57,786 nt of DNA from Gemmatimonadota bacterium (GCA_036679645.1 JAZDCY010000037.1:1-57786), one strand, 5' to 3'; numbered from the stretch's first letter, positions 3,288-57,786 are shown. Translations and numbers: made by a program. Notes: a model not told the origin generated them from the letters alone.

Positions 3288-3935
3288 GTGTTGCCGATGA
3301 GCAGCCGATGTTGCTGGGCCGTGGTCCCGCTAGTCCTTCTGGCGTGCTCGCAACCCGACCCCGCGGGGCCCGGGGACGGCAATACCACCGGGGGGCCGGC
3401 GGAGATTCCCGATCTTTCCGGTATCTGGGTCGTTACGCAGGCGGACAACGGCTCGTTCCAGACGAGTGACGCACAGGGCGGTGACGTGCAGGAGCGCGCT
3501 AGTGGTGAGTGTGTCATGCGGGCGAGTGGTGGCGGGCCGTGGCGTCTGGTCATTGTCCAGGATGGGAGCAACGCGACCGCCGAGTTCCCGGCGCGGCAGT
3601 TGTCGTGCGAGGGTGAGGACACATCGCCAGATACGCCCGCGGAGGGGACGGTGCGCCTGAGTGAGACGTTCGAGGGCTTCACGGTCGGGGTGCGCTTCGG
3701 CGGTGATGGCAGTGCGAGTTTCGTCCCACACAACACCTGCGACGATGCGGCGTTCGCGCGAGACATCGTCTCGGCATGCAGTTGGAGCGAGTCCATGTCA
3801 CTGACTCGTGAGGGAACCGGCGATATCATGGGGACCTTCACCGTGCGGTTGGATTACACGGTGGTTTCAACCCGTCGTTCGTACGAGGTCATCCGCGGAA
3901 ACCTGCTTGCGGAGTGGATCGGGCCGCCGCCGTGA
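3288..3935 (+). CDS. Hypothetical lipoprotein
   Basis: Signal peptide with lipobox VLLAC; normal composition; fills the gap between genes. Confidence 0.65.
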   Translation: MLPMSSRCCWAVVPLVLLACSQPDPAGPGDGNTTGGPAEIPDLSGIWVVTQADNGSFQTSDAQGGDVQERASGECVMRASGGGPWRLVIVQDGSNATAEFPARQLSCEGEDTSPDTPAEGTVRLSETFEGFTVGVRFGGDGSASFVPHNTCDDAAFARDIVSACSWSESMSLTREGTGDIMGTFTVRLDYTVVSTRRSYEVIRGNLLAEWIGPPP

Positions 3936-3965
3936 GCTGACGTCAGCGAGACGCCCGTTCTGGGG

Positions 3966-4844
3966 TCAGTGGCGCGTGATGCGATTGCGGCCCTTGCCTT
4001 TGGCCGTTGCGAGCGCGTTAGCCGCTGCATCGACGAGCGGATCAGAAGCCTTGTCTGGCGAGGGGACTTGCGCCGCGACACCGCCACTGACCGTTACGCG
4101 CTCGTCTATCCCTTTTGGATGATTCAGGTTCAGCGTGTGGATATCCACGCGCATCCGCTCGCATAGCTCTTCCGCCTGTTTCACCTCCAGTCCACCGGCG
4201 AAGATTAGACCAAAGGTCCCACCGTGGTACCGCGAGACCAAGTCGCCAGAGCGCCGCAAATGATCTGACAGGACTTCGGCAACCCGGCGCAGCGCCTTGT
4301 CACCATCGAGGTGTCCCCATTCGTCGTTGTAAGCGCGGAGATGATCCACGTCGAGGAGCGCTACCGCGAGCGGCACCTTGAGACGCCCGGCACGGCGCCA
4401 CTCCTCCTTCAGGTTATTGTCCCAGACGCGGCGGTTGGGCGCCCCCGTGATGCCGTCCACGCGATCCTCGCGTTGCTTGCGATCGGTGATGTCGCGAGCC
4501 ACTGCGTAGAGCAGTCCAGTCTTCGCTTCGGGATAGGATGTCCAGTGGAGATACTTGTACGAGCCGTCCTTGCAGCGGAACCGGTTCTCGAACGAGAGAG
4601 TGAGCTGGCCGGAAGCGAGCTTACCCACTTCGGCGAGGGTCTGTTCACGATCGTCGGGGTGCACGAGGTCGACGAACGGATGTGCCAGCAGCTCTTCGGT
4701 CTCGTAGCCCAAGACGCGGGTGAAGGCCGGGTTCACGCGCCGGAAGAAGCCCTTGGTGTCCGCGATACAGAACAGGTCAACCGCGAAGTTGAAGAACTTC
4801 TCCAGGTCGTAGGTGTTGTCTGCCTTGCGGGGAGGAGTTGCCAC
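3966..4844 (-). CDS. PAS-GGDEF protein with a degenerate active site
   Basis: PAS/PAC (VNPAF...VHPDD...FENRFRCKDGSY...ARDITDRK), then a GGDEF fold (DGITGAPNRR, LLDVDH, GHLDGD, KGKGRNR). The signature is replaced by HGGTF. Confidence 0.9.
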   Translation of the reverse strand: MATPPRKADNTYDLEKFFNFAVDLFCIADTKGFFRRVNPAFTRVLGYETEELLAHPFVDLVHPDDREQTLAEVGKLASGQLTLSFENRFRCKDGSYKYLHWTSYPEAKTGLLYAVARDITDRKQREDRVDGITGAPNRRVWDNNLKEEWRRAGRLKVPLAVALLDVDHLRAYNDEWGHLDGDKALRRVAEVLSDHLRRSGDLVSRYHGGTFGLIFAGGLEVKQAEELCERMRVDIHTLNLNHPKGIDERVTVSGGVAAQVPSPDKASDPLVDAAANALATAKGKGRNRITRH

Positions 4845-5500: not shown

Positions 5501-5548
5501 CTACCGTTCGCCACTAGCCGCCGTCTGAGCGAACCACTCGGCGAAGGC
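5501..5548 (-). repeat. Diverged direct repeat of the rdgB 3' end
   Basis: Translates [15 protein letters not shown], matching the rdgB C-terminus at ~6700-6747 with synonymous changes. Confidence 0.85.
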
Positions 5549-5556
5549 AAGGTCAG

Positions 5557-5844
5557 TTAGTCTTCGGGCTCGATCTCCACCGCAATTCCCCCGACGAAGC
5601 CAGCGATCATGTTGTAGAACCAACACGCGAGCACAGTTGTGACCCACCCGAAAGCCGCGTACAGCAAAGGGAAGATGAACAGCGTGACCCCACTGAACCA
5701 GGCCATTCCAGTGTCATCGACGCTGTCCGGCAGTACGCTGATCAAGATGTAGACCGGGACGAGGAAGATGATGGTCATAACTAAATACATCATGGCGGCC
5801 ATGTTGGCGGTCTGGATGACTCCAAAGCGTCGTACGCGATGCAT
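5557..5844 (-). CDS. Small two-TM membrane protein (DUF3566-like)
   Basis: 95 aa, two hydrophobic helices, C-terminal YNMIAGFVGGIAVEIE. Confidence 0.75.
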   Translation of the reverse strand: MHRVRRFGVIQTANMAAMMYLVMTIIFLVPVYILISVLPDSVDDTGMAWFSGVTLFIFPLLYAAFGWVTTVLACWFYNMIAGFVGGIAVEIEPED

Positions 5845-8042: not shown

Positions 8043-8502
8043 GGATGCGCTCCACCAGGGCCGTAGTTGAGTATCCCTCTCGCAGGGTGATGACCGATAC
8101 GTCTCCGCCGCGTGCAAGGACAACCTCGCGGCCGGGTACGGCATCGGCGGTGTAGTCGGCGCCCTTTACGAGTACGTCAGGTGTCATGGCCTCGATCAAT
8201 GTTGCCGGGGTGTCCTCGTCGAACAGTACTACGCAATCCACCGCAGCCAGCGCCGCCACGACGCGTGCGCGGTCCACGCCTGGGACGACCGGCCGGCCGG
8301 CGCCTTTGCCCAGGCGCGCGGCCGAGGCATCGGAGTTCACGCCCACGACGAGCGCATCTCCAAGTGCCCGCGCTTCCTCGAGCAGTGCAATGTGTCCGGG
8401 GTGCAGGAGATCGAATACGCCGTTGGTGAAGACGACACGCTTCCCCTCGCGCGCCCGCCACCGTGCGGCCTCGCTGCGCGAACGGATCTTCGTGCTCGTC
8501 AT
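8029..8502 (-). CDS. rfaE2: D-glycero-beta-D-manno-heptose 1-phosphate adenylyltransferase
   Basis: [32 protein letters not shown] motifs. Confidence 0.93.
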
Positions 8503-9791
8503 GGGGGCGCCGCCGCGTCGGTCTGCCCGCCGCGCGCAAAGACGAGCTTCAGGAGAGGAGGTGCCACGAACGTCGTACCTATCACCATCAGAAGGATGCC
8601 TCCAAAGAGTTCGGGCGAGAGCACCCCGCTCGTGATGCCGATGTTGGCGAAGATCAGTCCTACCTCACCGCGCGGGATCATGCCGACGCCCACCGCGAGT
8701 CGGTTGAACTTGCGCCAGAACACCGCGTAGCCGGCGACCACCTTGCCGAGGACCGCGATGAGGAACAGCGCACCGCCGATGGCGAGGACCGCACGATTTG
8801 TGGGACTGGATGGGTTCAGCAGGCTGATATTGAACTGCGCCCCGATGCTCATGAAGAATATCGGCGTGAAGATATCCGCGACGGGTTTGATGCGGTCCTC
8901 TATGATATCGAACTGATTCGTTCCGGACAGGATCAATCCGGAAGCGAACGCTCCAATGATCATGGCCGACCCAGCGCGATCCGCGAGCCATGCTACGATC
9001 AACGTGAAGGCGAAGGCGGAGACAAGCAGCATGCCGCGCACCCTCATCCGATCGATGATGTTGAAGACACGCGGCGCGAGCGCGGTCCCGATGATGAGTG
9101 CGGCGGCGAGGAAACCGATCGCGACGGCGAGTCCGCGACCGATCTCGAAGACACCCACGGACGCTCCCGAGACCAACGCGGCGACGACGCCGAGGATGAC
9201 CAAGCCGAGCACGTCGTCGATGACTGCAGCGCCCAACACGAGTTGGCCCTCAACCGAGCGCAGGGCCCGCAGGTCCGTCATCACGCGCGCGGTGATCCCG
9301 ACCGACGTGGCGGTGAGCGTGGCCCCAATGAAGATCGCGGTTGTAGAATTGGCGACCAAATTGAAGCGCTCGGTTGCCAGCGGCGATATCCAGAACAAGA
9401 AGCCGAGCAGGAACGGCAGGGCGACGCCCACCGCGGCTACGGTAGTAGCGCCCGCGCCGACGCGCACGAGTTGTTTCAGGTCGGTGCCGAGGCCGATCTC
9501 GAACAACAGGACGACGACTCCGATTTCGGCAAGAACCCTAACGATATCGGCAACCGGGTCGGCTGCCCCTATGGGGATGACGCCGAGGAGGGAGGGGCCA
9601 AGCAGGGCCCCGGCGATCAACTCGCCGAGTACCGCCGGTTGTCCCATCCGCTCGAAGACCTCAGCCGAGATCTTGCCGGCGACGAGCAGGACCGGGAGAA
9701 TCCAGAACAACCGCGTAATTAAATCGTCACCCGCGGACGTGCTCATTCCTGTGAGCGCGGTGGGCACCGCGGCAAGAAGCGGCGCGATCAC
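8499..9791 (-). CDS. Cation:proton antiporter (CPA2/NapA-like)
   Basis: Multi-[29 protein letters not shown] motifs. Start uncertain. Confidence 0.92.
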
Positions 9792-44207: not shown

Positions 44208-45354
44208 CCACCGCCACTTTCGGTTCCCACTCGCGCATCATGTGGACGAACGAATGGGCGGCCACACCGTCGAACTCTACTCCGGCTCTCTCCTCGATAT
44301 AGGCCATCACCTTGTCTGACGGCCACGCGTCACGGTACGGACGGTTGGTACGGAGGGCGTCGTACACGTCACATACGTGCACGAGTTTGCTGGCGGTATG
44401 GCAGTCGCGTTGATACTTGAGGCTGGGATACCCGCCACCATTGATCATGATGTGGTGCTCGTAGGCCACGACGGCGGCGAGATCCAGGTCCGGTTCGGAC
44501 GTGATGATGATCCGGGCCCCTTCCGAAGGGTGAGCGTTCATGATGGTCCGCTCCTCGGGACTCAGCTTCCCCTTCTTGTTGAGGATCTCCTCCGGGATTT
44601 TCACCTTGCCCAGATCGTGGAGCAGACCGGCAACGCCAAACGTGCGGACATCGCGCGCGCCCATGCCCATCCACTCGGCCAGGCCCATCGCGAGCACCGA
44701 CACGTTGATCGAGTGCGTCGTGGTGTATTGGTCGAATTCCCGGATGCGCAGCAGGGGAATCATCAGATCCTGGTCGCCGTGCATGGCGACGGACAGCCCG
44801 CGCACTACGGCTTCTGCCTCTAGCATGGGTAAGGCGCCGCCGTCGGTCAGCTCCTCGTGCATCCACCGGACCGTATCCGCTTCGATCCCCAATGTCATTT
44901 GCAGGGTCGCGATGCGAGCCTCTTTGTCGGGCTCGAGTTCCTTCTCGTCGGAGCCGTCGAGACCGATAGCCCCGTAGCGGATGCCGCTCGCGCGGGTCTG
45001 GCGTGCCTCGGACGTGTCGATTGCCTGGAGCGTCAAGCGTGCCAACACCAGGTCGAGGAACTCCCCGACCTCGTCTCGTGTGACGGTCGCATCGAACAAC
45101 ACCCGCTGGAACCCGGCCTCGGCGAGCCGACGGTTCCAGTCCCACCCACGCATCTCCCGCAGCGGATTGTTGCCGTAGATCACCTCGTCGCCGAGGAACG
45201 AGAAAGACGGCGTGGAGTCCTCGTCGAGCAGATCGCGCAGTGTCCCGTACACCAGATCGACCGCGCGCTCCCGCGATGGATGCCCGTCGGGATACATGGC
45301 CAATGCCGCTAGTGACTGGGCGAGGCCGTAGAGAAACTCGACTGGGGCGGACAC
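44176..45354 (-). CDS. HD-GYP domain phosphohydrolase
   Basis: HSINV, LLHDLGK, EHH...GGGYP, DVYDAL. Confidence 0.92.
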   Translation of the reverse strand: MSAPVEFLYGLAQSLAALAMYPDGHPSRERAVDLVYGTLRDLLDEDSTPSFSFLGDEVIYGNNPLREMRGWDWNRRLAEAGFQRVLFDATVTRDEVGEFLDLVLARLTLQAIDTSEARQTRASGIRYGAIGLDGSDEKELEPDKEARIATLQMTLGIEADTVRWMHEELTDGGALPMLEAEAVVRGLSVAMHGDQDLMIPLLRIREFDQYTTTHSINVSVLAMGLAEWMGMGARDVRTFGVAGLLHDLGKVKIPEEILNKKGKLSPEERTIMNAHPSEGARIIITSEPDLDLAAVVAYEHHIMINGGGYPSLKYQRDCHTASKLVHVCDVYDALRTNRPYRDAWPSDKVMAYIEERAGVEFDGVAAHSFVHMMREWEPKVAVVTEEEEVPAS

Positions 45355-48007: not shown

Positions 48008-49030
48008 ATGCGGCGGATAACATTCTTGCTCCCGCTGGTGATCGGTATTGCGGGTGCAACGCTCAACGCGCGGGCCGAGGCCCAGGTACGCCCCCGCCCC
48101 CGCCCCATCCGACCCGCGCACACGTTCTCGATCGTCGCCGTCGATACCGTGACCGGCGAGATCGGCGCGGCGGTGCAGTCCCATTGGTTCAGCGTCGGGA
48201 GCATTGTCACGTGGGCGGAGCCGGGTGTGGGTGCGGTGGCGACCCAGTCGTTCGTCGACCCCAGCTACGGTCCGCGCGGGTTGTATCTCATGCGGACCGG
48301 AACACCCGCCCCGGAGGCGTTGTCGGCGCTACTGCGCGCGGATCCCGATTCGCAGGTGCGTCAGGTGGCAATGATCGATGCGGCGGGCCGCGTGGCGGCG
48401 CACACCGGATCGCGCGACATCCCCGCCGCCGGGCAGCACGTGGGCAATGGGTACTCCGTGCAGGCGAACCTCATGCGCAATGACCGCATCTGGCCGGCCA
48501 TGGCGCACGCGTTCGAGACGACCGAGGGCGACCTCGCCGCGCGCATGCTCGCGGCACTCGAGGCCGGGCAGGAAGCGGGGGGTGACATTCGCGGGCAGCA
48601 GTCGGCGGCGCTAGTAGTCGTGAGTGGCGATCCCGACGCCCAGCCCTGGGAACGCGTATTCGATTTACGAGTTGAAGATCATCCCACCCCCATTGCCGAA
48701 CTGCGGCGATTGGTGCACGTGGCTCGCGCCTACGCGGCGGCGACCGAGGGTGACAACTGGATGACCGTGGGCGAGGTGGATTCGGCGCTCGTGGCCTACC
48801 GGCGGGCGTCGGAGATCCTGCCGGACGAGGCGACGAACGGTGAGTTGATCTACTGGGTAGCCGTGACGCTTGCGGATTTGGGGCGCATCGATGAGGCGAT
48901 CCCCTTGTTCCGCCGGTCGTTTGCGCAGGACGAAAGTTGGATCGAGCTGTTACGCCGGCTGCCCGATGCGGGGTTACTCGGGGCCGACGAGGCTACGATT
49001 GAGCGGATTGTGCGGGAGGCGAGGAGATAG
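48008..49030 (+). CDS. DUF1028 (Ntn-hydrolase-like) protein with C-terminal TPR
   Basis: TFSIVAVD...GAVATQS...QANLM...AGGDIRGQQSAAL...DLRVEDH. Confidence 0.92.
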   Translation: MRRITFLLPLVIGIAGATLNARAEAQVRPRPRPIRPAHTFSIVAVDTVTGEIGAAVQSHWFSVGSIVTWAEPGVGAVATQSFVDPSYGPRGLYLMRTGTPAPEALSALLRADPDSQVRQVAMIDAAGRVAAHTGSRDIPAAGQHVGNGYSVQANLMRNDRIWPAMAHAFETTEGDLAARMLAALEAGQEAGGDIRGQQSAALVVVSGDPDAQPWERVFDLRVEDHPTPIAELRRLVHVARAYAAATEGDNWMTVGEVDSALVAYRRASEILPDEATNGELIYWVAVTLADLGRIDEAIPLFRRSFAQDESWIELLRRLPDAGLLGADEATIERIVREARR

Positions 49031-49067
49031 GTGCTCGGGTGCTCAGGGGCGCAGGTGCTCAGGGGGT
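49028..49067. repeat. Degenerate tandem octamer repeat (CAGGTGCT-like)
   Basis: taggtgct cgggtgct caggggcg caggtgct cagggggt. Confidence 0.6.
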
Positions 49068-49497
49068 GCGACAGTGATTGTGCGGTCGGTGGAGGCTTGG
49101 CGGCCGTGTGATAGATTCGTCACCGTGAGCGAGACGCGGTACTAGCCCGACGCATCTGGGACCTCAGGCAGCAAACGTTCCGGCAGAGTAGGAGCATGAC
49201 CGAGCCCCACGTCCCAAGTTAGCTCTGTGTCTTACGTTCGCCGCACGCCGGGCACCGCGCGAATGCCCTGGCCGGAACGGGTTGCCCGGCCGCGTCAGCA
49301 ATGCGGAAACGAACCCGATGGCGCGCGGCGGTTGATTCTGGCAGGCTCGTTTCGGATCGTCGGACTGTTGCGGTTCGCCCCACCCGGGCGCACAACTCCG
49401 AGACGCGAGCGAGCCACCGGCGATCATGGTGGTCAGCATCAGGCGTGACTAGGCGCCGCACGTACCGCCGTCGTCGTGACCGCCAGGGGGTTCGCGG

Positions 49498-50079
49498 TCA
49501 ACGAGCCGACTCAAGCAGGCACCCGTTGCAGGTTCGCACGTAGGCTGTAACGCAGCCACACTCCTCGAAATGATTCGCATCGCCTACTGCGGGACAGAGG
49601 CGAGCGCACCTCCGGTGAAACCACTCTGGGAGCCTGGGGGTCGTCGCCGCAGAGTCCAAATGAAGCAGAACTTCTATGACGTTCCCGTCGCGTTTGACGA
49701 GGATGCGGGCTCTTCCCTGACGGTCAATCTTTCTTTGGAGAAGTTGCCAGAAAGCTGTCGTCGTTGCGGTTCGGGATCTTTCGAGTCCAAGGATCGAGTC
49801 GCCTGGAGCTAGCCCCGCCCACCATCCCGGACCCCCGCTATCGACCGCCGCGACAACTAGCGTACCCATGCTGCCGGACTGATCGTCGTGGAGCTCAATC
49901 CCCGTGCGAACCGCGGCGTCACCGACATCGATCTCTGACTGGCATTGGATCAGGCCTATGGTCGCAACGAGCGTCGCGCCGATGGCAACGTGGGTTCTTA
50001 CCCATTGCGCGGGACGACGCTTCGTGAAGCGAGGGGTGCGGGAGCAGACGACGGATCCGCGAACTCGGCGATTCGGCAT
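49498..50079 (-). CDS. Membrane-anchored PDZ-domain protein with a Cys-rich C-terminal tail
   Basis: TM/signal segment; PDZ pattern GIEL...VVAAVDSGGPGWWAGLAPGDSIL...VKRDG; tail CARLC...ECGC...TCNGCLL. ATG is 1 nt after the upstream stop. Confidence 0.75.
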   Translation of the reverse strand: MPNRRVRGSVVCSRTPRFTKRRPAQWVRTHVAIGATLVATIGLIQCQSEIDVGDAAVRTGIELHDDQSGSMGTLVVAAVDSGGPGWWAGLAPGDSILGLERSRTATTTAFWQLLQRKIDRQGRARILVKRDGNVIEVLLHLDSAATTPRLPEWFHRRCARLCPAVGDANHFEECGCVTAYVRTCNGCLLESAR

Positions 50080-50080
50080 G

Positions 50081-51205
50081 TCAATTTCTGTCTCTCGGAG
50101 CGGGGCACGCTACACTACCCGAGACTTCAAATATCCCAATCGATTGCTCGCCCCACGAATCCTCCAGAACACCCGCGACGACGTCCTGCCACACCGTCAC
50201 ATGTTTGAGGGCGGCCGGAAGCAGCAGCGGCCGAAGGGCGCGCCCATCGACACTCCATCTGTCCCACTGCACCCACTCGGGGGTTTCCCAGTACGTCTTT
50301 GCAAGGATGGACCCGTCGCGGCTCCCGACCAACCCCCTCACCGACGGAAGGACCTCGGGAAACGACAGGTGTTGAGCCAAAGAAGAGTCCCCGAGATTCC
50401 GGGCAAAGAGGCTGCGATATTGATCCGACATTCGCACCCGAGTACTTCGCCCCCTGATTACGCGTTCGGTCGAGCCGTCGGGGGCGATGATGCGGATCGC
50501 ATACTCTTCGGTCGATAGGAGCGCAACTCGATCCGGAGCAACGGGGGCCAACATCGGGAACACGGCATATGGAACAGGCAGCTCCATCACTCGTCCTCGT
50601 AGCGTCGTCCGTCTTCCAATTACATGAACGAACTCCAGAAGCGTATCGGTCTGGCCTTCACCGATAGAAGATGCGACGACGACTCCTCCAAGCTCTTCAG
50701 GTGCCGCGCCGCGCCAGGGAGGCAAGACTGCGGCCACGACTCTGCCACCCGACGTCACGAGGGTGGCTGGGGTCCCCGGGAATAGAAGAGTCGCCATCGG
50801 GACCACACCTACGTGTTCGCCGGAGCGACTCCAGATCGTCAGACGACCGTTGGCGAGGTCCCGAAAAATGAGGTTCGTGTCAAGCCAACCAAGTTCCATT
50901 CCTCCTTGGAACTCCCTTGGACCAGAACCGCTGCGGCCACGGATCCAGAGCGCTCGCCCGAGAGAATCAAACGCCATGATCCGGTGAGTTCCCCCGTCAA
51001 GCACGAACACGCGCTTCGACTCATCCAGGACGAGTCCTGTTATCTGCACAAACGGGTCGGTGTCCGCACGCCCGGGGCCAATCGTCCGGACAAGGCGTAC
51101 GGTGCCGCATAGCGATTCGCCTAAGGAGGGTCGAGGAGAATCGCACGAAAAGACCGATCCGCACGCAGTCATTGCGACCGCGAGGAGGCGTAGCCTCAAG
51201 TACAC
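50081..51205 (-). CDS. 6-bladed beta-propeller (NHL-like) exported protein/lipoprotein
   Basis: Signal with Cys; RVFVLD...IMAFDSLG...GRSGSGPREF repeat signature. Confidence 0.82.
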   Translation of the reverse strand: MYLRLRLLAVAMTACGSVFSCDSPRPSLGESLCGTVRLVRTIGPGRADTDPFVQITGLVLDESKRVFVLDGGTHRIMAFDSLGRALWIRGRSGSGPREFQGGMELGWLDTNLIFRDLANGRLTIWSRSGEHVGVVPMATLLFPGTPATLVTSGGRVVAAVLPPWRGAAPEELGGVVVASSIGEGQTDTLLEFVHVIGRRTTLRGRVMELPVPYAVFPMLAPVAPDRVALLSTEEYAIRIIAPDGSTERVIRGRSTRVRMSDQYRSLFARNLGDSSLAQHLSFPEVLPSVRGLVGSRDGSILAKTYWETPEWVQWDRWSVDGRALRPLLLPAALKHVTVWQDVVAGVLEDSWGEQSIGIFEVSGSVACPAPRDRN

Positions 51206-51239
51206 GGATCGACTCTCGGGGCCTTTCAGGTCGCCGCTT

Positions 51240-51815
51240 TCAGTACGAACGCCTCGGTTCTGGACACGCCGCGAGCGCCTCGGCTGAATCGACGCTCGAA
51301 GAGGGACCCAGTACGTGCTTCACCACGCCCGCCCGGCCGAGAATCAGCGTCGTTGGGACCGCGAGAATGCCAAGGCGGGCGGCAACGGCCGAGGATGCCG
51401 TTCCGACGGCGTACGTGGAGAAGGAGAGTGCGTGCCGGCGAACAAAGCTGTCCGCCGACGCCCACTCTGAGAAAGAAATGCCGATCACGTTCCGCCGCCG
51501 CTCGGGGGCGAAATCAGTAGCCCACCTTGGAGCCAGCGCTTCACACGTGGCGCATGAAGGAGACAGAAACAGCACGACGGAGCACTCCGGCAGGTCGCGG
51601 AACGAGATGGTCAACGATCGACCGAGCCCACTGCGTGCAGTCAGCGTGTCCAGTTCCGCCCCGGCCTGGATCCACTCGGTACCCCCTGTTGCTCTCCTCA
51701 CCAACAGCAAGCCCTGGATGATTCCGCCGAGCACAAGAGCGGCAAGCAAAGCGGTCAGCCACCGCTGCTGGCCAGGAGTTGAGCTGCTACCCGTGCCCCG
51801 CTCAGGCGTTGCCAT
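51240..51815 (-). CDS. Membrane-anchored TlpA/ResA-like thiol-disulfide oxidoreductase
   Basis: TM helix; VVLFLSPSCATC (CxxC); cis-Pro loop AVPTTLILGRAGVV. ATG overlaps the peptide stop (TGATG). Confidence 0.85.
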   Translation of the reverse strand: MATPERGTGSSSTPGQQRWLTALLAALVLGGIIQGLLLVRRATGGTEWIQAGAELDTLTARSGLGRSLTISFRDLPECSVVLFLSPSCATCEALAPRWATDFAPERRRNVIGISFSEWASADSFVRRHALSFSTYAVGTASSAVAARLGILAVPTTLILGRAGVVKHVLGPSSSVDSAEALAACPEPRRSY

Positions 51816-52039
51816 CAGCCGGGGATAATCAGACACCCATTACAGGATTCGGCGCAAACCGTGCAGCAGCAGGACCAATCCGTGGGGTCTGACGCACACT
51901 GGCATTGGCACTTGCGGGCTGGATGTTCCGGCGGGCAACCTCCCTGTGCTAGAGTGGACGCCCTCAAACCGCCCGTCGCGAGCCCGATGTTGAGCAACGC
52001 GAAGGTGAGGACCAGCAGCCATTTAGTTCTTTTCCGCAT
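51815..52039 (-). CDS. Secreted 10-Cys peptide B (74 aa)
   Basis: GGAGG RBS; Sec-type signal; core CPPEHPARKCQCQCASDPTDWSCCCTVCAESCNGCLIIPG; paralog adjacent. Confidence 0.88.
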   Translation of the reverse strand: MRKRTKWLLVLTFALLNIGLATGGLRASTLAQGGCPPEHPARKCQCQCASDPTDWSCCCTVCAESCNGCLIIPG

Positions 52040-52119
52040 TTGGTGCCTCCGACATTAAGACTAGCCGCCATTGAGGCTTCGTGTGCGCCTGTGCGTGCCA
52101 CGTAGCCGCCGGGCCGATG

Positions 52120-52335
52120 TCAACCGGGAACCACCAGGCATCCATTGCATGAGGAGGCGCAAACCGAACAGCAACAGCCCCAGTCCGTGGGGTCTCCCGC
52201 ACACTGGCATTGACATTTGCGAGGAGGGTTCTCCGGGGGGCACGGATGCTGCGCAAACGCGAGGTTCCCTCCGGCGAGCCCAAGGTTGATGATCACGAAC
52301 GCCGTCACTAATAGCCAGCGAGTCTTGTCACGCAT
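52120..52335 (-). CDS. Secreted 10-Cys peptide A (71 aa)
   Basis: GGAGG RBS; signal ending AFA-Q; core CPPENPPRKCQCQCAGDPTDWGCCCSVCASSCNGCLVVPG. Confidence 0.88.
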   Translation of the reverse strand: MRDKTRWLLVTAFVIINLGLAGGNLAFAQHPCPPENPPRKCQCQCAGDPTDWGCCCSVCASSCNGCLVVPG

Positions 52336-52519
52336 AGCTGCCTCCAAGCTGGTGGTTCAACCGCAAGTGAAGCGCCGCGGCGAATCCTTGCTCCCGCAGG
52401 GCCTCGGGCCAGAAGATGCCCCGATACTGGGACATCGTGGGCGCTGCATCCCGCCACATTCGAAAACCGCCAGAACTCACCGTCCATCAACGTTCGGCTA
52501 TTCGGATCAATACGATTTG

Positions 52520-52596
52520 CATTGTCTTGAAGACAATGACCGTTTGCGCTGACCTGGTGCGCTGACCTCTTGCGCGGGGGGGGGGGGGGGAGATTC
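52520..52596. promoter_or_regulatory. Divergent control region: 9-bp inverted repeat, 13-bp-period direct repeats and a G15 tract
   Basis: CATTGTCTT-G-AAGACAATG (52520-52538); TGCGCTGACCT at 52545 and 52558, TGCGC at 52571; G15 at 52576-52590. Confidence 0.6.
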
Positions 52597-52630
52597 TACT
52601 TTACCGTAGCCGTCCCCGAGGACTTTCACG

Positions 52631-53110
52631 ATGTTGGTGCGGAAGCTCGTAGTGAGCCTGCTCAGCCAAGCCGCTGTTGCCGATCGCCGTGTGCACCGTG
52701 TGGTCGAGGCGCTGGCTGACCGACGAGGGCTCCTACGGAACGCCGACGACTTCGCTCGGGACCTCGGCTTCGGCTCGCGACACCAGCTTCACCATTGCCT
52801 CAAACGCCACCGTCTCCCGCCCATTCGCCGGCTCGCCGCCTGGATACGCCTCCTGACGATTGCCGTCGAGATGACCGAAAGCGGAATGAGCCTGGAAGAC
52901 ATTGCGTGGCGCGACGGTATCGATCCGTCGGTGGAACATCGCCGGGCCCGGCGGATACTCGGTGTATCGTTGGGCACCGCTCTGCAGAACGGCGTCGAGG
53001 GTGTCCTGGTCCGGATTTGGGAGGACTGGGCGCGGCACTTGGCAGCGGATCGTGATCCTGTGGCAGCACAGAGAGCAATCTCGCGTATCCTCCGTGACGC
53101 AAGCGCGTAG
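52631..53110 (+). CDS. AraC-type HTH regulator (DNA-binding domain only)
   Basis: ADDFARDLGFGSRHQLHHCLK...WIRLL...SLEDIAWRDGIDPS...RRILG double-HTH pattern. Confidence 0.7.
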   Translation: MLVRKLVVSLLSQAAVADRRVHRVVEALADRRGLLRNADDFARDLGFGSRHQLHHCLKRHRLPPIRRLAAWIRLLTIAVEMTESGMSLEDIAWRDGIDPSVEHRRARRILGVSLGTALQNGVEGVLVRIWEDWARHLAADRDPVAAQRAISRILRDASA

Positions 53111-53152
53111 GGCGCCCTTCCCTGCCATCGAGCTGTCTGTTAGCGCGATGCA

Positions 53153-53211
53153 CAGGCGCTCAGGCGCTCAGGCGCTCAGGCGCTCAGGCGCTCAGGCGCT
53201 CAGGTGCTCAG
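53153..53211. repeat. Tandem octamer repeat (CAGGCGCT)x6 + CAGGTGCT
   Basis: Six perfect units, one variant unit, then CAG. Confidence 0.95.
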
Positions 53212-53418
53212 ATCGATGCTCCATCCCGTGTGTGACGCGGGCGAAACCGCGTAGGCCCCGGGGCGTCAAATCGGCGGTCAGCGTCACCCACTCGAGTAGA
53301 TACGCCTCATGCATGTGATGGGCGCACGGGTGTCAGTGGCCGAGCCGCGACGCGGATGACCTGCTTGAGTTGGGTCGCTCAGCGGTCGAGTGACAAAGTG
53401 AGAATGGCCCGAAGACGA

Positions 53419-54225
53419 CTACGCCGCGCGATCCGCAACCTGCGGCAGTACGCTGCTGGGGCTACCGAAATGGGTGACCAGTTCCTGACTTTCCAGGTCA
53501 GCATCCGATCGAGGGATGACAAGACGTTGCTCGGCGGTAGCGAAGTAGAGGCAGCCCAGTTCTTCGGGCGGCCGTGTCCGCGCAAACCGCTCGGCGGCTT
53601 CGAGGGCCTGGAGCCACATCTGCTTGGCGCCTGTCGCGTCGAACGGTTCGGTGAGTTGCAGGCGGGCGATGTCCTCTGGTCGGTGTTTCCCGCGACGCCG
53701 CAGCAGTTCCAGGAGTGAGAGTGGGGTGAAGCCCGGGTCCTTGCCCACGGCGGCCCAGACGAGTCCCGCCAGAGGAAGCACGTTCGCGTGAACGAAAAGC
53801 GTGTCGACATAGTCTCGTGGTTCGTCTCTGCCCGCGAGCGCGAGGATCTTGTTGGCTGCGAGATCGACCTGGTGCAGCAGGAGCCCGCCGAGCGGGTCGC
53901 GTTGGAGCGGCATGAAGCGCCATGCAGAGTCGTGCGCCCAGTCGATCCGCGTGGCGTCCGTGCCACGACGCACGATGGCGCGCACGAACCCGGGCTGGCT
54001 CAGGGTCACGTCAACGTCATAGCCCGCTCGGTCGAGTTGCGCGCGGTCCGCCTCGAACGTGGATGCCACTCGTTCGACCGAATCGTGAAAGAAATCCAGG
54101 TCGTCACTATGACGGATGGAATTGGCGGCGAAGTGCAGTGCCGCTCCGCCGGCGAGATAGCGGTCGTTCGTCCGCGAGTGCGCGAGTTCGGCGAGAATCT
54201 GTAGCTGGAAGTCGGTTATTGGCAC
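53419..54225 (-). CDS. AbiEii/AbiGii-like nucleotidyltransferase toxin family protein
   Basis: YLAGGAAL...RHSDDLDFF...DLAANKILALAGRDEPRDYVD. Confidence 0.8.
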   Translation of the reverse strand: MPITDFQLQILAELAHSRTNDRYLAGGAALHFAANSIRHSDDLDFFHDSVERVASTFEADRAQLDRAGYDVDVTLSQPGFVRAIVRRGTDATRIDWAHDSAWRFMPLQRDPLGGLLLHQVDLAANKILALAGRDEPRDYVDTLFVHANVLPLAGLVWAAVGKDPGFTPLSLLELLRRRGKHRPEDIARLQLTEPFDATGAKQMWLQALEAAERFARTRPPEELGCLYFATAEQRLVIPRSDADLESQELVTHFGSPSSVLPQVADRAA

Positions 54226-54401
54226 AGGCGACTCGCCACGCGCCACGCTTCGCGATTGCCGTGCCGCATGAGCTGGTCCGCCACCCACTGCACGTCGGCG
54301 ATGCCGATCTCGAGGTCGGGCCGGTACGACCAGAAGCAGCTTGCCCGGAAGCGTCGGAACGCGCGCCGCGCCTCGCGCACCTTTACCATTCGCCGCGCCA
54401 C
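54216..54401 (-). CDS. Small protein coupled to the AbiEii-like gene (putative antitoxin, DUF6922-like)
   Basis: CFWSYRPDL...VADQLMRHG; overlaps the toxin start. Confidence 0.6.
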   Translation of the reverse strand: MARRMVKVREARRAFRRFRASCFWSYRPDLEIGIADVQWVADQLMRHGNREAWRVASRLCQ

Positions 54402-54405
54402 GGCC

Positions 54406-54441
54406 TCATAAGCAGCTTATGATATAACGTCAAGTATTCAA
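54406..54441 (-). promoter_or_regulatory. Operator palindrome overlapping the promoter of the AbiEii-like pair
   Basis: TCATAAGC-A-GCTTATGA (54406-54422) in an AT-rich patch with TTGACG/TTGAAT -35-like hexamers. Confidence 0.6.
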
Positions 54442-54469
54442 ACCTATTATCTGCCCCCTACTCTAACCG

Positions 54470-54790
54470 TCAGCCCAGCGGCAACACCACCGCTGCAACG
54501 TCGACATGAGCCGGCACGACATTTCCCATCCCCCGGTCGAACGTCGCAAGCCGCCCTTCATGGCGCAGCGCGACGGCCACGAGGTGTGCCTCGGTCACCT
54601 GGCGGTGGCCGACGAGGCGCTCCGGGGCAATGAACTGGGACTGACAGAACGAAACGTCATCCGACCAAAACCGATGGCCGTCCAGCGCGGTGATCGGCGA
54701 TGGCTTCCGCGGGGCGCCGCAGCCGCGTGGTGCACGTGATTGGGCTACGCGAGCGCAATGAGCACGTTCACGTCCGAGCAGGACTGTCAT
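54470..54790 (-). pseudogene. vapC: vapC copy 3: +1 frameshift, TGG>TAG nonsense and internal deletions
   Basis: Clear nucleotide similarity to 57119-57556; the central part is missing. Confidence 0.88.
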
Positions 54791-54791
54791 G

Positions 54792-54885
54792 TCACTTGTC
54801 GAGCGCCGCCGGCACCATCTCCGGCGTGAGCGGAGGAGCATCAGGCGGCACGTCGAAGGTGGGAACGCCGTGCTCGCCGATTGGC
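54792..54885 (-). pseudogene. vapB: vapB 3' remnant
   Basis: IGEHGVPTFDVPPDAPPLTPEMVPAALDK* matches the C-terminus of 57558-57779. Confidence 0.85.
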
Positions 54886-54988
54886 TCGCCCGATTGACGC
54901 TGCGCTTGCCGTTGAGCATCAGCAGTAAGGCGTCGCATGTGAAGCGGGCGCCGGAACGCAGCCTGGCATCGTACGGCGAACTGTGCTA

Positions 54989-55002
54989 GGTTACATGTAA
55001 CC
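54989..55002. promoter_or_regulatory. Perfect 14-bp palindrome, probable mazEF operator
   Basis: GGTTACATGTAACC 18 nt upstream of the antitoxin start. Confidence 0.65.
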
Positions 55003-55019
55003 CTAAGCCGGAGTGCCCG

Positions 55020-55232
55020 GTGGGATCATCGAAACGTCCGAGCACGTCGCGGGATAAGGTCCGGGCCTACCGCGCACGGCTGCGGCAGCAGGGCTTGCGC
55101 CCGATCCAGATCTGGGTCCCCGACGTTCGCTCGCCGGGCTTCGCCCAGGAGGCGCATCGCCAATCCCTGGCTGCCGCGAACAGCCGACACGCTGCGGACG
55201 ATCAGGAATTCATCGACGCGATCTCGGAATGA
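55020..55232 (+). CDS. MazE-like antitoxin (DUF3018 family)
   Basis: RDKVRAYRARLRQQGLRPIQIWVPDVRSPGFAQEAHRQS; ATGA overlap with the toxin. Confidence 0.9.
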   Translation: MGSSKRPSTSRDKVRAYRARLRQQGLRPIQIWVPDVRSPGFAQEAHRQSLAAANSRHAADDQEFIDAISE

Positions 55233-55574
55233 AACGCGGAGGCATCTGGACGGTCGCGGGGGGCAAGGACTACGCCGGAAAGCCCCGGCCCGCCGTGATC
55301 ATCCAGGATGATCGCTTCAATCGTACGAGTTCGGTCACGCTGTGTGCCCTCACGTCCGACCCGACCGACGCTCCCCTTTTCCGCCTGCCCCGTCATACCG
55401 AGCGACCGCAATGGGTTGCACGCGCCCTGCCAGGTGATGGTGGACAAGATCACGACCGTGCCGAAGGTGAAACTGGGGTCCAGGATCGGCGACCTCGATG
55501 ATGAGGACATGCTTCGGCTCAACCGAGCGATTCTCGTGTTTCCCGGACTCGCTGGAGGCTCGGCGGTCGGCTAG
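55229..55574 (+). pseudogene. mazF: MazF/PemK toxin, frameshifted by one extra C near 55387-55390
   Basis: MKRGGIW...GKPRPAVIIQDD...APLFRLP in frame 1 continues as VIPSDRNGL...MVDKITTV...IGDL in another frame. Confidence 0.88.
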
Positions 55575-55624
55575 GTTACCGCCCGGTCAGTCAGGCACAG
55601 ACGCTCAGTTGCACAGACGCTCAG

Positions 55625-55663
55625 AAAAAGCAAACGCCCCGGAGAGCTATTCCGGAGCATTTG
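55625..55663 (-). terminator. Intrinsic terminator downstream of vapC copy 2
   Basis: CAAATGCTCCGGA/TCCGGGGCGTTTG stem with G-U pairs on the minus strand, then CTTTTT. Confidence 0.6.
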
Positions 55664-55728
55664 GCTGGACCGCGTAGCAGAATGCTGCCAAACGTCTAGC
55701 CGTCTAGTCCATTTCTCCCTACCCCCCC

Positions 55729-56107
55729 TCAGTCAAGCAGCAACACCACCCCGTCGGAGTCAACATGAGCCGGCACGACATCCCCCATCCCCCGGTCGAA
55801 CGTCGCAAGCCGCCCTTCATGGCGCAGCGCGAGGGCCACGAGGTGCGCATCGGTCACGTGGCCGTGGCCGATGATACGTTCCGGCGCAATGAACGAGGAG
55901 TGACAGAACGAAACGTCATCCGACCAAAACCGATGGCCGTCCAGTGCGGTGATCGCGCGGAGCACGGCGATGGCCTCCGCAGGCCGCTTCGCATCTGGAA
56001 TGACGCGCATGTTGGACGAGATCCGCACGAAACCGCTCTCGGTGACGGGGCACGTTGCCCACCCGTCGGCACGATGCGCCGTGAACCACTCGACCGCCGC
56101 CGCGTGG
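55729..56107 (-). pseudogene. vapC: vapC copy 2, 5'-truncated (lacks the DVNV catalytic Asp)
   Basis: Near-identical to 57119-57497; homology stops at 56107. A fortuitous ATG lies at 56127. Confidence 0.85.
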
Positions 56108-56287
56108 CTATGCCCGATGACGCTCATTGTTGCACTTCAAAGTTGATACTAAATGTCCCCCGCCGCGATCGCCCGGGTCCTCGGCCGCCATCGGTCCACG
56201 GGTAGCGTATCGGAGACGCTCGAGGTCACCGTCCGGGAGAATCCGGTCAGACAACTCGAGGTGGAACCCCGTACGGTGACCGCGCGC

Positions 56288-56515
56288 GCAAGATGTGTGG
56301 ATGAGTGAGCTTCGCGGCAATTCTCGATCTCGCGGAGGAACCGCTCCGGCCCCAACGTCGGCCAGCTCTGATCGCAACACTTTGACCGCGACTTTGCGAT
56401 GGTGGCGCACGTCCTCGGCCAGATACACGGTGGCCATGCCGCCCGCACCAATCTCCTTCTCTATGGAATAGCGATCCGCGAGCGCGTCGCGTAGCCGGCC
56501 GATGAGGTCAGACAT
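56288..56515 (-). pseudogene. Ser/Thr protein kinase N-terminal relic with frameshifts
   Basis: MSDLIGRLRDALADRYSIEKEIGAGGMATVYLAEDVRHHRKVAVKVLR / LGPERFLREIE / IAAKLTHPHIL across different frames. Confidence 0.85.
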
Positions 56516-56780
56516 GGGCCCAAGATACGGAGCGGAGGTGAAAGCCGCGAGCGCGCCCGGCTCCTCGATGGTGGCCGTGCCCGAGTGGTGCAGTTCGCGT
56601 AGGGACCGACGGCTCGCGAGGCGAGAGCTATTCCTGTCACCTCGCCACAAACTGATCCCCGCACGCAACAAAACGATACCGGCATCGGACCACCTCCCAC
56701 CCATCTTGCACTCGCGGTTTCGATGGAGACTTGTTGGGCCCGCGTCGCAATACCATGGCCGTCGAATCGAAGAAGTGGTG

Positions 56781-56864
56781 GCCGGCGTGGCGGAATTGGT
56801 AGACGCACAGACTTGACAAGTCTCGGAGCGCAAGCTCGTGTGGGTTCGAATCCCACCGCCGGCA
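56781..56864 (+). tRNA. Type II tRNA with a tRNA-Leu body and a GAC (Val) anticodon
   Basis: GCCGGCG/CGCCGGC acceptor; D arm GCGGAATTGGTAGACGC; anticodon loop TTGACAA; variable stem GAGC-GCAA-GCTC; T arm GTGGG-TTCGAAT-CCCAC; A73. Confidence 0.9.
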
Positions 56865-56948
56865 CCCACCGGACCACTTGCTTTGAACGCGGGGCCGAGC
56901 ATAGGTTTCAAGTACTTGTCAGGTCTGTGTAGCGTTTTCCGCTACGTC

Positions 56949-56992
56949 CGAAAGCCGAGGCTGGGGATTCCCTACCTCGGCTTTCGTTTTCT
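56949..56992 (+). terminator. Intrinsic terminator downstream of the tRNA
   Basis: 12-bp perfect stem CGAAAGCCGAGG/CCTCGGCTTTCG followed by TTTTCT. Confidence 0.7.
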
Positions 56993-57118
56993 ATCCCGCT
57001 ATCCGCGGTCCGTATAAAGACTCTAAGCGATGCGCAGACGACGAGTTCTGTGTTGCCGTCTGTGCGCGGGACGACGTCGGACGTCGCGGTAGAGGTTGGA
57101 CTCTTTCCCCTACTACCC

Positions 57119-57556
57119 TCAGTCCAGCAGCAACACCACCCTGTCGGCATCGACGTGAGCCGGCACGACATCTCCCATGCCCCGATCAAACGTTGCAAGC
57201 TGCCCTTCACGTTGCAGTGCAAGGGCAACGAGGTGCGCATCGGTCACTTGGCCGTGGCCGATGATACGCTCCGGCGCAACGAAAGAGGAGTGACAGAACG
57301 AAACGTCATCCGACCAAAACCGATGGCTGTCCAGCGCGGTGATCGCGCGGAGCACGGCGATGGCCTCCGCAGGCCGCTTCGCATCTGGAATGACGCGCGT
57401 GTTGGACGAGATCCGCACGAAACCGCTCTCGGTGACGGGGCACGTTGCCCATCCGTCGGCGCGATGCACCGTGAACCACTCGACCGCCGCCGCGTGGTGC
57501 ACATGATTGGGCCACGCGAGCGCAATCAGCACGTTCACATCGAGCAGGACCGTCAT
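57119..57556 (-). CDS. vapC: VapC PIN-domain toxin (mycobacterial Mtu_PIN-like), intact
   Basis: LLDVNVLIALAWPNHVHH, TCPVTESGFVRI, QVTDAHLVALA, LATFD. Confidence 0.93.
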   Translation of the reverse strand: MTVLLDVNVLIALAWPNHVHHAAAVEWFTVHRADGWATCPVTESGFVRISSNTRVIPDAKRPAEAIAVLRAITALDSHRFWSDDVSFCHSSFVAPERIIGHGQVTDAHLVALALQREGQLATFDRGMGDVVPAHVDADRVVLLLD

Positions 57557-57557
57557 T

Positions 57558-57779
57558 TCACTCGTCGAGCACTTCCCGCACCATCTCCGGCGTGAGCGGA
57601 GGAGCATCAGGTGGCACGTCGAAGATTGGAACGCCGTGCTCGCCGATCTGGGGCTCAGCGGGACGCAATCCTCGGCGGGCCAGATCGGAAATGACATCCC
57701 CGATGCTGCGGTTCTCCGTGGCAGCCAGGCTCCGGGCCGCCCGGAGGATGTCGTCATCCAACGTGAGCGTTGTTCGCAT
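57558..57779 (-). CDS. vapB: VapB antitoxin (RHH/CopG type)
   Basis: MRTTLTLDDDILRAARSLA...SIGDVISDLARRGL; stop is 1 nt before the vapC ATG. Confidence 0.92.
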   Translation of the reverse strand: MRTTLTLDDDILRAARSLAATENRSIGDVISDLARRGLRPAEPQIGEHGVPIFDVPPDAPPLTPEMVREVLDE

Positions 57780-57786
57780 CAAGGCA

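Follow-up and report, generated by a model that had tools for sequence, protein, structure and literature searches.

A five-gene operon in a Gemmatimonadota bacterium, carried with its divergent regulator at positions 49,498 to 53,110 of a 57,786-nucleotide stretch of DNA (GCA_036679645.1, JAZDCY010000037.1; the whole stretch is called the window below), may direct the production of two small disulfide-bonded proteins in the cell envelope. We propose that these mini-proteins are helped to fold by a TlpA-like thioredoxin-fold enzyme and are bound by a beta-propeller lipoprotein and a PDZ protein, all encoded alongside them, and we put the probability of this reading at about one half. The operon is not a stand-alone invention; it is a variant that elaborates a recurring type of cassette, present in multiple copies in its own genome.

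A second locus keeps the four gene families together

The operon consists, in order, of two genes for cysteine-rich peptides (pepA and pepB), a gene for the TlpA/CcmG-like protein, a gene for the propeller and a gene for a PDZ protein with a cysteine-rich tail, here called PDZ-Cys (Table 1). An earlier reading of the DNA (the sequence-only reading) had described five co-directional genes, some of them translationally coupled, with a ribosome-binding site ahead of each peptide gene. This description holds. The five are all encoded on the minus strand, both peptide genes are preceded by GGAGG, the stop codon of pepB overlaps the start codon of the TlpA-like gene (TGATG), and a single base separates the propeller stop from the PDZ-Cys start (TGA-C-ATG). 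The spacer between pepA and pepB is 80 nt long and the gap between the TlpA-like and propeller genes 34 nt. That reading also stated that there is no enzyme for ribosomally synthesised and post-translationally modified peptides (RiPPs) and no peptidase-containing ATP-binding cassette (ABC) exporter, and we likewise found neither in the operon or its flanks, from position 45354 to the end of the window.

A scan of metagenomes yielded one locus, L013 (2451 bp), which encodes all four partner families. The genes at L013 run in the order PDZ-Cys, peptide (P0004), TlpA-like protein and propeller, which is rotated relative to the operon, and the TlpA-like gene begins 2 nt past the peptide stop. Identities to the operon's products are 35% for the PDZ protein, 36% for the TlpA-like protein, 32% for the propeller (full-length alignment, E 2e-58) and approximately 40–50% for the peptide. 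The PDZ protein of L013 keeps its cysteine tail, ending in ...ECGCVTAECKTCNGCRM. Because the four families are found together at 32–36% identity in a rotated order, there is good sequence evidence, from two loci only, that they constitute one functional unit. Homologues of the peptides had been expected to lie beside TlpA, propeller and PDZ genes; on L013 all four do recur together, with their order permuted.

A rare family of cysteine-rich, putatively exported peptides

As the sequence-only reading proposed, the two peptides are paralogues of 71 and 74 residues, and both match exactly the framework C-x8-CxCxC-x8-CCC-x2-C-x3-C-x2-C-LxxPG, with ten cysteines in a core of 43 residues (23% Cys). 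Signal peptides, lipoboxes and membrane anchors were judged by eye throughout this study. Each peptide begins with a predicted Sec-type signal: the N-terminus is basic, some 18 hydrophobic residues follow as the core, and the end resembles AxA, with predicted cleavage between AFA and QHP in pepA and between TLA and QGG in pepB. A prepilin-type (class III) signal was considered and rejected on inspection: the hydrophobic core directly follows the positively charged N-region and there is no cleavage site of the G/F type.

The peptides are 68% identical as proteins and 66% identical as DNA. In the core, synonymous change is near saturation (pS 0.65, dS 1.53), while dN is 0.19, and both peptides are under long-standing and strong purifying selection. 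The low dN against a near-saturated dS, together with the existence of distant homologues elsewhere, establishes that the peptide genes are more than chance open reading frames (ORFs).

The sequence-only reading did not recognise the cysteine framework from any named bacterial family, and no entry in Pfam, NCBIfam, PADLOC or the PDB matches the peptides or the framework; a search of PDB sequences with the peptide profile returned a single match at chance level (E 0.17). The best score in the ESM Atlas, 0.83, was to unnamed clusters and serves as a lead only. With pepB alone as query, a word-based protein search had no match. When both peptides were combined into a profile, 1.84 billion representative proteins yielded 2 matches at E ≤0.001, and a profile of five sequences retrieved six proteins from a collection of 5.8 billion (E 6e-28 to 4e-16), each of them on 1–3 contigs. 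The known family has eight members, namely pepA, pepB and six others (P0001, P0002 and P0004–P0007).

No family member was found in the 60 nearest-relative genomes, where the match in G043 carries two internal TGA stops, nor in 400 other genomes of the phylum. In that larger sample 4 of 401 genomes matched, the operon's own genome being among the four. The match in G325 was rejected because it falls within a larger gene but in another reading frame, with two TGA stops; that in G030 corresponds to another peptide, encoded upstream of a propeller gene, and that in G416 is a His-rich protein adjoining a TonB-dependent receptor. The species-representative genomes yielded 11 pattern matches to the peptide profile, of which none was confirmed. 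Taken at the level of sequence, the peptide family is real and very rare.

The G416 protein (locus L015, 1369-1728, minus strand) is an exported protein of 119 residues that contains HHHAHHG and GCCDLCVASCAGC and is encoded directly upstream of the receptor gene, whose product has a Plug domain match (E 2e-20). Its match to the peptide profile is weak (E 5e-7 in a single-genome search) and DUF2946 scores no better than E 0.19, so that what ties it to the peptide family is mainly a short motif together with the signal peptide.

Fourteen positions of the core are invariant in all eight members: C35, R42, C44, Q45, C46, C58, C59, V61, C62, S65, C66, N67, G68 and C69. They comprise eight cysteines and the SCNGC motif. 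Four positions of the signal peptide (M1, L9, N17 and L20) are likewise invariant. Asn17 and Leu20 lie inside the hydrophobic core and are retained though overall identity is about 40%; most of the relatives share ...LAAANLSA. A plain Sec signal is seldom conserved in this way, and a sequence-specific contact in the membrane might be the reason.

The number of cysteines per member is 10, 10, 10, 8, 8, 8, 8 and 8, and is thus even in every case. The difference lies in Cys48, the third cysteine of CxCxC, and Cys57, the first of CCC, which are jointly present in the three ten-cysteine members and jointly absent from the five eight-cysteine members. A disulfide between Cys48 and Cys57 would produce such a paired gain or loss. 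The weight of this argument is modest, because the ten-cysteine members may descend from one event. In the best AlphaFold2 (AF2) model of the mature peptide, with a predicted local distance difference test (pLDDT) score of 71.6, the segments KCQCQC and CCCTVC form two paired strands. The C-terminus is Pro-Gly in four of the eight members and lacks a terminal glycine in the other four; a Pro-containing or Pro-rich C-terminal tail and the CxxxC formed by C62 and C66 are common to all.

The thioredoxin-fold, propeller and PDZ partners

The sequence-only reading took the three partners to be a membrane-anchored CxxC thioredoxin, an exported six-bladed propeller and a PDZ protein, and the searches and models described here lend support to these assignments, although most Pfam scores of the operon's own proteins fall short of the curated cut-offs. 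The TlpA-like protein matches Pfam AhpC-TSA at E 1.9e-5, its 25.0 bits falling under the cut-off of 26, and its closest relative in the PDB is CycY (CcmG-type, 1kng; E 4.3e-5). The L013 orthologue passes the Redoxin cut-off (32.4 bits against 26.6). The active-site CxxC lies in SPSCATC in the operon's protein and in SPSCPSC in the orthologue, and a single N-terminal hydrophobic helix, WLTALLAALVLGGIIQGLLLV, precedes the thioredoxin domain as a putative membrane anchor. The top-scoring named NCBIfam model is MauD (TIGR02661, E 2e-4), the cut-off of which, 188.6 bits, is reached neither by the operon's protein (20.9) nor by the orthologue (27.2). The models for MauA, MauB and MauE match no protein of the operon.

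For the propeller, Pfam gives a weak NHL repeat match only, with no match to PF17170 (DUF5128) at E ≤1. Paralogues encoded in the same genome, on contig C22, do pass the PF17170 cut-off of 22.9 bits (with 30.8 and 28.4), as do the relatives L005 and P0003. An AF2 model based on an alignment of seven sequences (pLDDT 82.4, predicted template modelling score (pTM) 0.81) has six blades of the NHL type. The top Foldseek matches to this model are the NHL domains of Thin, Brat and TRIM proteins (E 2e-12). Alignment with VIA-align gave a Z score of 21.0 for the Brat NHL domain (root-mean-square deviation (rmsd) 3.6 over 259 residues), 16.6 for peptidyl-alpha-hydroxyglycine alpha-amidating lyase (PAL; rmsd 4.1, 259 residues), 16.5 for two exported Bacteroides proteins of unknown function, 14.7 for the lumenal domain of SOQ1 and 13.9 for the NHL domain of NHLRC2. 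A lipobox is predicted in both propellers, as ...AMTAC in the operon and as the canonical LSAC in L013. Five columns are invariant across the seven aligned propellers and all are glycine, so that no residue of a catalytic type is conserved; nor was any conserved histidine seen between the operon's propeller and the L013 orthologue when their alignment was read by eye. For these reasons the propeller fits better as a binding scaffold than as a PAL-like enzyme. The family is a large one: a profile of the operon's propeller and six relatives finds 18 paralogues in the same genome at E <1e-10, and matches in 55 of the 121 genomes sampled in the order, with no more than 18 in any genome.

The PDZ-Cys protein scores 22.8 bits against Pfam PDZ_2 (E 1.2e-4), under the cut-off of 27. 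Its L013 orthologue passes the cut-offs of PDZ_6, PDZ_2 and PDZ, and a profile of the two sequences matches the PDZ domains of RseP and DegP in the PDB at E 6e-10. The protein is built of a basic N-terminus, one hydrophobic helix, the PDZ domain and the six-cysteine tail. The tail ends ECGCVTAxxxTCNGCLL (...TCNGCLLESAR), and pepA and pepB end ...SCNGCL(I/V)(I/V)PG. The tetrapeptide CNGC occurs 13 times in the six-frame translation of the genome (8,099,072 residues), and three of these occurrences are in the operon; the form [ST]CNGCL is found in these three copies only, each of them near a C-terminus. On this sequence evidence the PDZ tail and the peptides share a terminal motif, and we do not claim homology because the similarity of their profiles is weak. 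One possibility is that the TlpA-like enzyme acts on the PDZ-Cys protein as well, as its third client; another is that this protein is a tether that imitates or recognises the peptide end. Among species-representative genomes the PDZ-Cys profile gave 41 pattern matches, none of them confirmed.

Related cassettes in the same genome and in relatives

The wider cassette is defined as a Cys-rich exported peptide, a thioredoxin-fold protein and a DUF5128/NHL propeller lipoprotein. Three further sets of this kind lie on contig C22 of the operon's own genome (Table 1). In the first, a divergent small regulator accompanies an 8-Cys exported peptide, a propeller and a DsbA-type thioredoxin. The second comprises an 8-Cys peptide (pep2, ending IPEG), an unknown protein of 165 residues and a propeller, and lacks a dedicated thioredoxin gene; pep2 sits between the DsbA-type gene of the first cassette and its own propeller. 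The third, about 5 kb further on, has a 6-Cys peptide, a DsbA-type thioredoxin and a propeller.

In relatives, we surveyed the best propeller locus of each of 29 genomes, with 1.5 kb of flank and a crude filter, and a Cys-rich, signal-bearing ORF was flagged in 5 of the 29, one of which (L024) looks spurious. The peptide ORF lies 48–212 nt upstream of the propeller and on the same strand in L030, L044 and L045, and about 1 kb upstream in L031. Two cassettes on contig C55 of G030 (L055, 2289-5685 and 7003-8600) each consist of a divergent sigma factor of the extracytoplasmic function (ECF) type, a 6-Cys peptide and a DUF5128 propeller. The type of regulator therefore varies by lineage and the pairing of peptide with propeller is kept. 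The peptides of different cassettes are unrelated in sequence; the propellers remain homologous. Literature searches found no paper on this type of cassette and none on DUF5128 or NVEALA, and the propeller literature that they turned up was unrelated.

The operon resembles these other cassettes in having an exported Cys-rich peptide directly upstream of a propeller, a tethered CxxC gene and a divergent regulator. It differs in that its peptide family (8 or 10 Cys, with SCNGC) is unrelated to theirs and its peptide gene is duplicated, in that its enzyme is TlpA-like where theirs are DsbA-like, and in the addition of a PDZ protein bearing the peptides' terminal motif, seen only in the operon and at L013. 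The sequence-only reading had put the operon forward as a candidate new system. What stands of this is an unmatched peptide family within a conserved four-gene unit; the cassette type itself recurs three times in the same genome and also in relatives.

Other loci also combine small cysteine-rich peptides with genes of these kinds. Contig C3 of G093 (L054, 24000-42000) carries a cluster of three or more propeller genes with a number of small exported Cys peptides, among them two 4-Cys paralogues in tandem (3599-3796 and 3883-4086) and one peptide with 7 Cys (8447-8641). An unrelated family of 68-residue, 8-Cys exported peptides occurs in the operon's own genome, with three tandem copies on contig C19 (L056, 1-9000; at 370-576, 2940-3146 and 5524-5730) and single copies on C8 and C97. 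These adjoin genes for lipoprotein-like proteins of about 450–500 residues (297 in the case of the third C19 copy), and the two C19 neighbours tested are DUF4876 lipoproteins. A TlpA/Redoxin-like gene lies just upstream of two of the three C19 copies, the first copy being at the contig end. The pairing of a thioredoxin with a Cys-rich peptide thus recurs with a different partner protein.

Genomic setting and regulation

Synteny with two genomes of the same genus continues until a DUF1028 gene ends at window position 49030. Neither genome has DNA that matches the following segment, 49031-53539, within which the operon lies, and other genes fill the site there. The GC content at third codon positions (GC3) is 0.64–0.71 for the five genes and the regulator, compared with 0.79–0.81 for the core genes leftward. 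On the right flank (53419-57786) are a MazE/PemK pair, three PIN genes and a tRNA-Val gene. Since the same-genus genomes have no matching DNA, the GC3 is low and the surroundings are of toxin–antitoxin and tRNA genes, the operon is an accessory insert. Within the right flank, the MazE-like antitoxin is paired with a short PemK-like toxin of 90 residues, two of the three PIN-domain genes are near-identical repeats, and the segment at about 56290-56490, of which there are many partial copies in the same-genus genomes, resembles a repeated element.

An AraC-type regulator had been listed as part of the system. A divergent gene with an HTH_18 match (E 2.2e-6) is present, its score of 28.3 bits being below the cut-off of 33.6, and its product is little larger than the AraC-type HTH_18 DNA-binding domain alone, too small to include a ligand-binding domain as well. 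The divergent regulator beside the C22 cassette shares 34% identity with it (E 2e-13). The intergenic region between regulator and operon measures 295 nt and holds a perfect palindrome and a run of 15 guanines. No match arose in 100 shuffled sequences, and the palindrome is the sole copy in the genome at ≤3 mismatches. The regulator and the palindrome may control the operon. Runs of G or C of at least 10 bases are rare, numbering 29 in the 4.05-Mb genome, with lengths of 10–18. A propeller gene is found within 1.2 kb of three of these runs, where 0.44 would be expected (binomial P 0.009), and the operon's own run is additional to these three. Such runs may allow slipped-strand phase variation of the propeller cassettes.

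An Rfam scan of 48900-53400 gave a single sub-threshold match at chance level, a scan for promoter-like sites gave none, and a terminator scan gave one terminator-like site, within the propeller gene, where shuffled sequence gave more. PADLOC found no match for the five operon proteins and related the regulator only weakly to mad1 (E 0.0088).

Table 1. Positions of the operon genes, neighbouring features and related cassettes (window coordinates unless a contig is named).
Feature	Position	Strand or place	Remarks
pepA	52120-52335	minus	71 aa; GGAGG at 52342-52346, 6 nt ahead of ATG
pepB	51815-52039	minus	74 aa; GGAGG at 52046-52050, 6 nt ahead of ATG
TlpA/CcmG-like thioredoxin-fold protein	51240-51815	minus	191 aa, counted from the ATG overlapping the pepB stop
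Six-bladed NHL-type beta-propeller, predicted lipoprotein	50081-51205	minus	374 aa
PDZ-Cys protein, predicted membrane-anchored	49498-50079	minus	193 aa; 6-Cys C-terminal tail
Small regulator, HTH_18	52631-53110	plus	159 aa; divergent from operon
19-bp perfect palindrome CATTGTCTTGAAGACAATG	52520-52538	between the divergent genes	candidate operator
G15 run (C15 on operon strand)	52576-52590	41 nt before regulator ATG	candidate slipped-strand switch
tRNA-Val(GAC)	56781-56866	right of operon
Three further cassettes	L014 (own contig C22 77001-87505), 919-5888 and 7916-10222		peptides with 8, 8 and 6 Cys
G/C runs	window 52576-52590 and 433-448; own genome C12 16704, C88 268, C88 3395 and C97 4476

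Discussion

In the reading that we prefer, the peptides would be exported by Sec and cleaved by signal peptidase I. The TlpA-like enzyme, membrane-anchored and co-translated with its substrate, would then help to oxidise or shuffle the cysteines into five predicted disulfides, a role suggested by the coupling of the genes, the parity of the cysteines and the paired change at Cys48 and Cys57. As modelled, the product would be a small knot based on a beta-hairpin. Finally, the propeller lipoprotein, joined in the operon's variant by the PDZ-Cys protein, would hold the folded peptide in the envelope, a step for which the conserved neighbourhood provides the sole basis. The enzyme might do this as an isomerase or proof-reader beside the general oxidase, or it might instead keep the peptide reduced.

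Several observations weigh against this reading. Characterised TlpA/CcmG/ResA-type enzymes are reductants, and a TlpA-like reductant would fit a peptide that is kept reduced as well as one that is isomerised. The structural model of the peptide is weak, with pLDDT of 50–62 for the other four AF2 models and a pTM of 0.35, and it matched no fold in the PDB by Foldseek or VIA-align. Cysteine counts made by eye for other propeller-linked peptides are sometimes odd (5, 5, 7 and 7), and the similarity of the PDZ tail to the peptides has an hhalign E of 0.042 over 15 columns. The peptide family is represented by only two loci with genomic context. In the operon's own genome, 4 of the 18 propeller paralogues adjoin peptide and thioredoxin genes and 14 have no adjacent peptide gene, which indicates that the propeller family is independent of such peptides.

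The main rival is a periplasmic chelator of Cu, Zn or Cd, or a metallochaperone, with its thiolates held reduced by the TlpA-like protein acting as a reductase. TlpA does the same for ScoI and CoxB. The motifs CxCxC, CCC and CxxC-x3-CxxC and the density of cysteine in the core are what such a protein might be expected to show, the enzyme is of the TlpA/CcmG type with CycY nearest in the PDB, and the weak relative at L015, encoded upstream of a TonB-dependent receptor, is His-rich and carries GCCDLCVASCAGC. That last link is thin, however, as the DUF2946 score shows. No His or Met ligand is conserved in the peptides, which are themselves predicted to be exported, and neither a metal pump nor a metal-sensing regulator nor an oxidase is encoded in the operon and its flanks; sister cassettes, moreover, carry DsbA-type proteins. 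The even cysteine counts in all eight members and the joint gain or loss of two cysteines favour a disulfide-rich mini-protein over a chelator, and we regard the chelator as unlikely. The sequence-only reading had offered both, a five-disulfide mini-protein or a metallothionein-like chelator, and of the two it is the former that gains from these patterns.

A narrower form of the preferred reading would make the peptides a Sec-dependent, disulfide-rich bacteriocin, with the propeller, the PDZ protein or both conferring immunity. The location is suggestive, as the operon lies in a low-GC3 accessory island that adjoins toxin–antitoxin and tRNA genes and is missing from two same-genus genomes, and the peptides are wholly different between cassettes while the propellers are homologous. 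Precedents for a dedicated helper exist. The bacteriocin operon of sublancin encodes its own thiol-disulfide oxidoreductases, BdbA and BdbB. For pediocin, an operon-encoded thioredoxin-like protein, PedC, is reported to be needed for the correct disulfides of the small secreted peptide (PMC4919988, PMC5465099). Bacteriocins of the PedC type are nevertheless products of Gram-positive bacteria, with double-glycine leaders, ABC exporters and one or two disulfides, whereas the operon's peptides have a Sec-type signal, five predicted disulfides and a predicted periplasmic location, and a propeller and a PDZ protein replace the known immunity and transport genes. The peptides have no double-glycine leader, no ABC or C39 gene was found in the operon and flanks (over the interval given above), and there is no outer-membrane route. 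With 14 of 18 propeller paralogues having no peptide gene beside them as well, we think a bacteriocin quite improbable.

The peptides might instead be RiPP-like precursors tailored by the propeller, either by cross-linking or by removal of a C-terminal glycine to leave an amide, as PAL does. The Pro-Gly end of four family members and the structural match of the propeller to PAL are compatible with this, but the other four members have no glycine end and the NHL domains that act as binding scaffolds score higher than PAL does. PAL requires three zinc-binding histidines together with a catalytic Tyr/Arg. No conserved histidine was seen in the comparison with the L013 propeller, the invariant columns among the seven paralogues are glycine only, and the operon encodes no PHM-like copper monooxygenase or other tailoring enzyme. 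This alternative is very unlikely.

Least probable of all is a regulatory leader like CutF or CruR (DUF2946), in which a nascent Cys peptide senses a periplasmic cue and thereby controls translation of the overlapping downstream gene: a Sec-type signal, a Cys motif such as the invariant CxxxC, a Pro-bearing C-terminal tail in all eight members and a peptide stop that overlaps or abuts the TlpA-like start in both the operon and L013 are features that CutF unites (10.1101/2022.11.11.516240). The peptide core, however, is much richer in cysteine and well conserved. Its 14 invariant positions, and the purifying selection on both tandem copies, speak for a product that folds. Metal-handling genes are missing downstream, an 80-nt spacer and not a coupled gene comes after pepA, DUF2946 matches neither pepA nor pepB at E ≤1 and none of P0001, P0002 and the L013 peptide at E ≤5, and the Cys domain ends just 5–20 residues before the stop, so that it would still be in the ribosome or translocon at termination, compared with about 45 residues from Cys motif to stop in CutF.

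The trio of a Cys-rich peptide, an anchored thioredoxin-like protein and a propeller can also be compared with two known arrangements. Methylamine dehydrogenase has MauD, a membrane-anchored thioredoxin-like accessory protein, MauA, a small disulfide-rich exported subunit, and MauB, a beta-propeller partner. The gene trio is alike, and MauD is the best named model for the operon's TlpA-like protein. The score nonetheless falls far under the MauD cut-off, the propeller has six NHL-type blades in place of the seven blades of MauB, and the operon has neither a second Trp for a tryptophan tryptophylquinone (TTQ) cofactor nor mauE, mauF or mauG. In NHLRC2 of animals and SOQ1 of plants a thioredoxin-like domain is fused to a six-bladed NHL propeller (PMC6107167). 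The operon likewise pairs a TlpA-like fold with an NHL propeller, but does so in separate genes and adds a dedicated Cys-rich peptide and a PDZ protein; structurally, its propeller is better matched by TRIM-type NHL domains.

As to the biological output of the proposed mini-protein system, our guess is a lineage-specific module for recognition or antagonism at the envelope, because peptide sequences vary greatly from cassette to cassette, the cassettes occur in multiple copies and the operon lies in an accessory island. More specifically, and tentatively, the cassettes could be undescribed envelope recognition modules in which a hypervariable, disulfide-locked mini-protein, supplied with its own thioredoxin, docks on a cognate NHL propeller, the operon's variant being handed to or tethered by the CNGC-tailed PDZ protein. 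Such pairs would diversify in the manner of toxin–immunity or ligand–receptor pairs across Gemmatimonadota-like and Bacteroidota genomes. We consider this extension possible, and clearly less probable than the folding and binding scheme from which it starts.

Disulfide-rich secreted small proteins with folding enzymes of their own are well studied in animals, in plants and among the bacteriocins of Gram-positive bacteria. To our knowledge, very few such proteins have been described from the periplasm of diderm bacteria. The operon offers a compact test case, with two substrates, one thioredoxin-like enzyme, two candidate binders and a shared CNGC tail, and it supplies sequence evidence for one specific predicted disulfide, that between Cys48 and Cys57. 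Solving it would illuminate the large, multi-copy family of DUF5128/NHL propeller lipoproteins, and might bear on the targets of thioredoxin–NHL proteins such as NHLRC2 and SOQ1.

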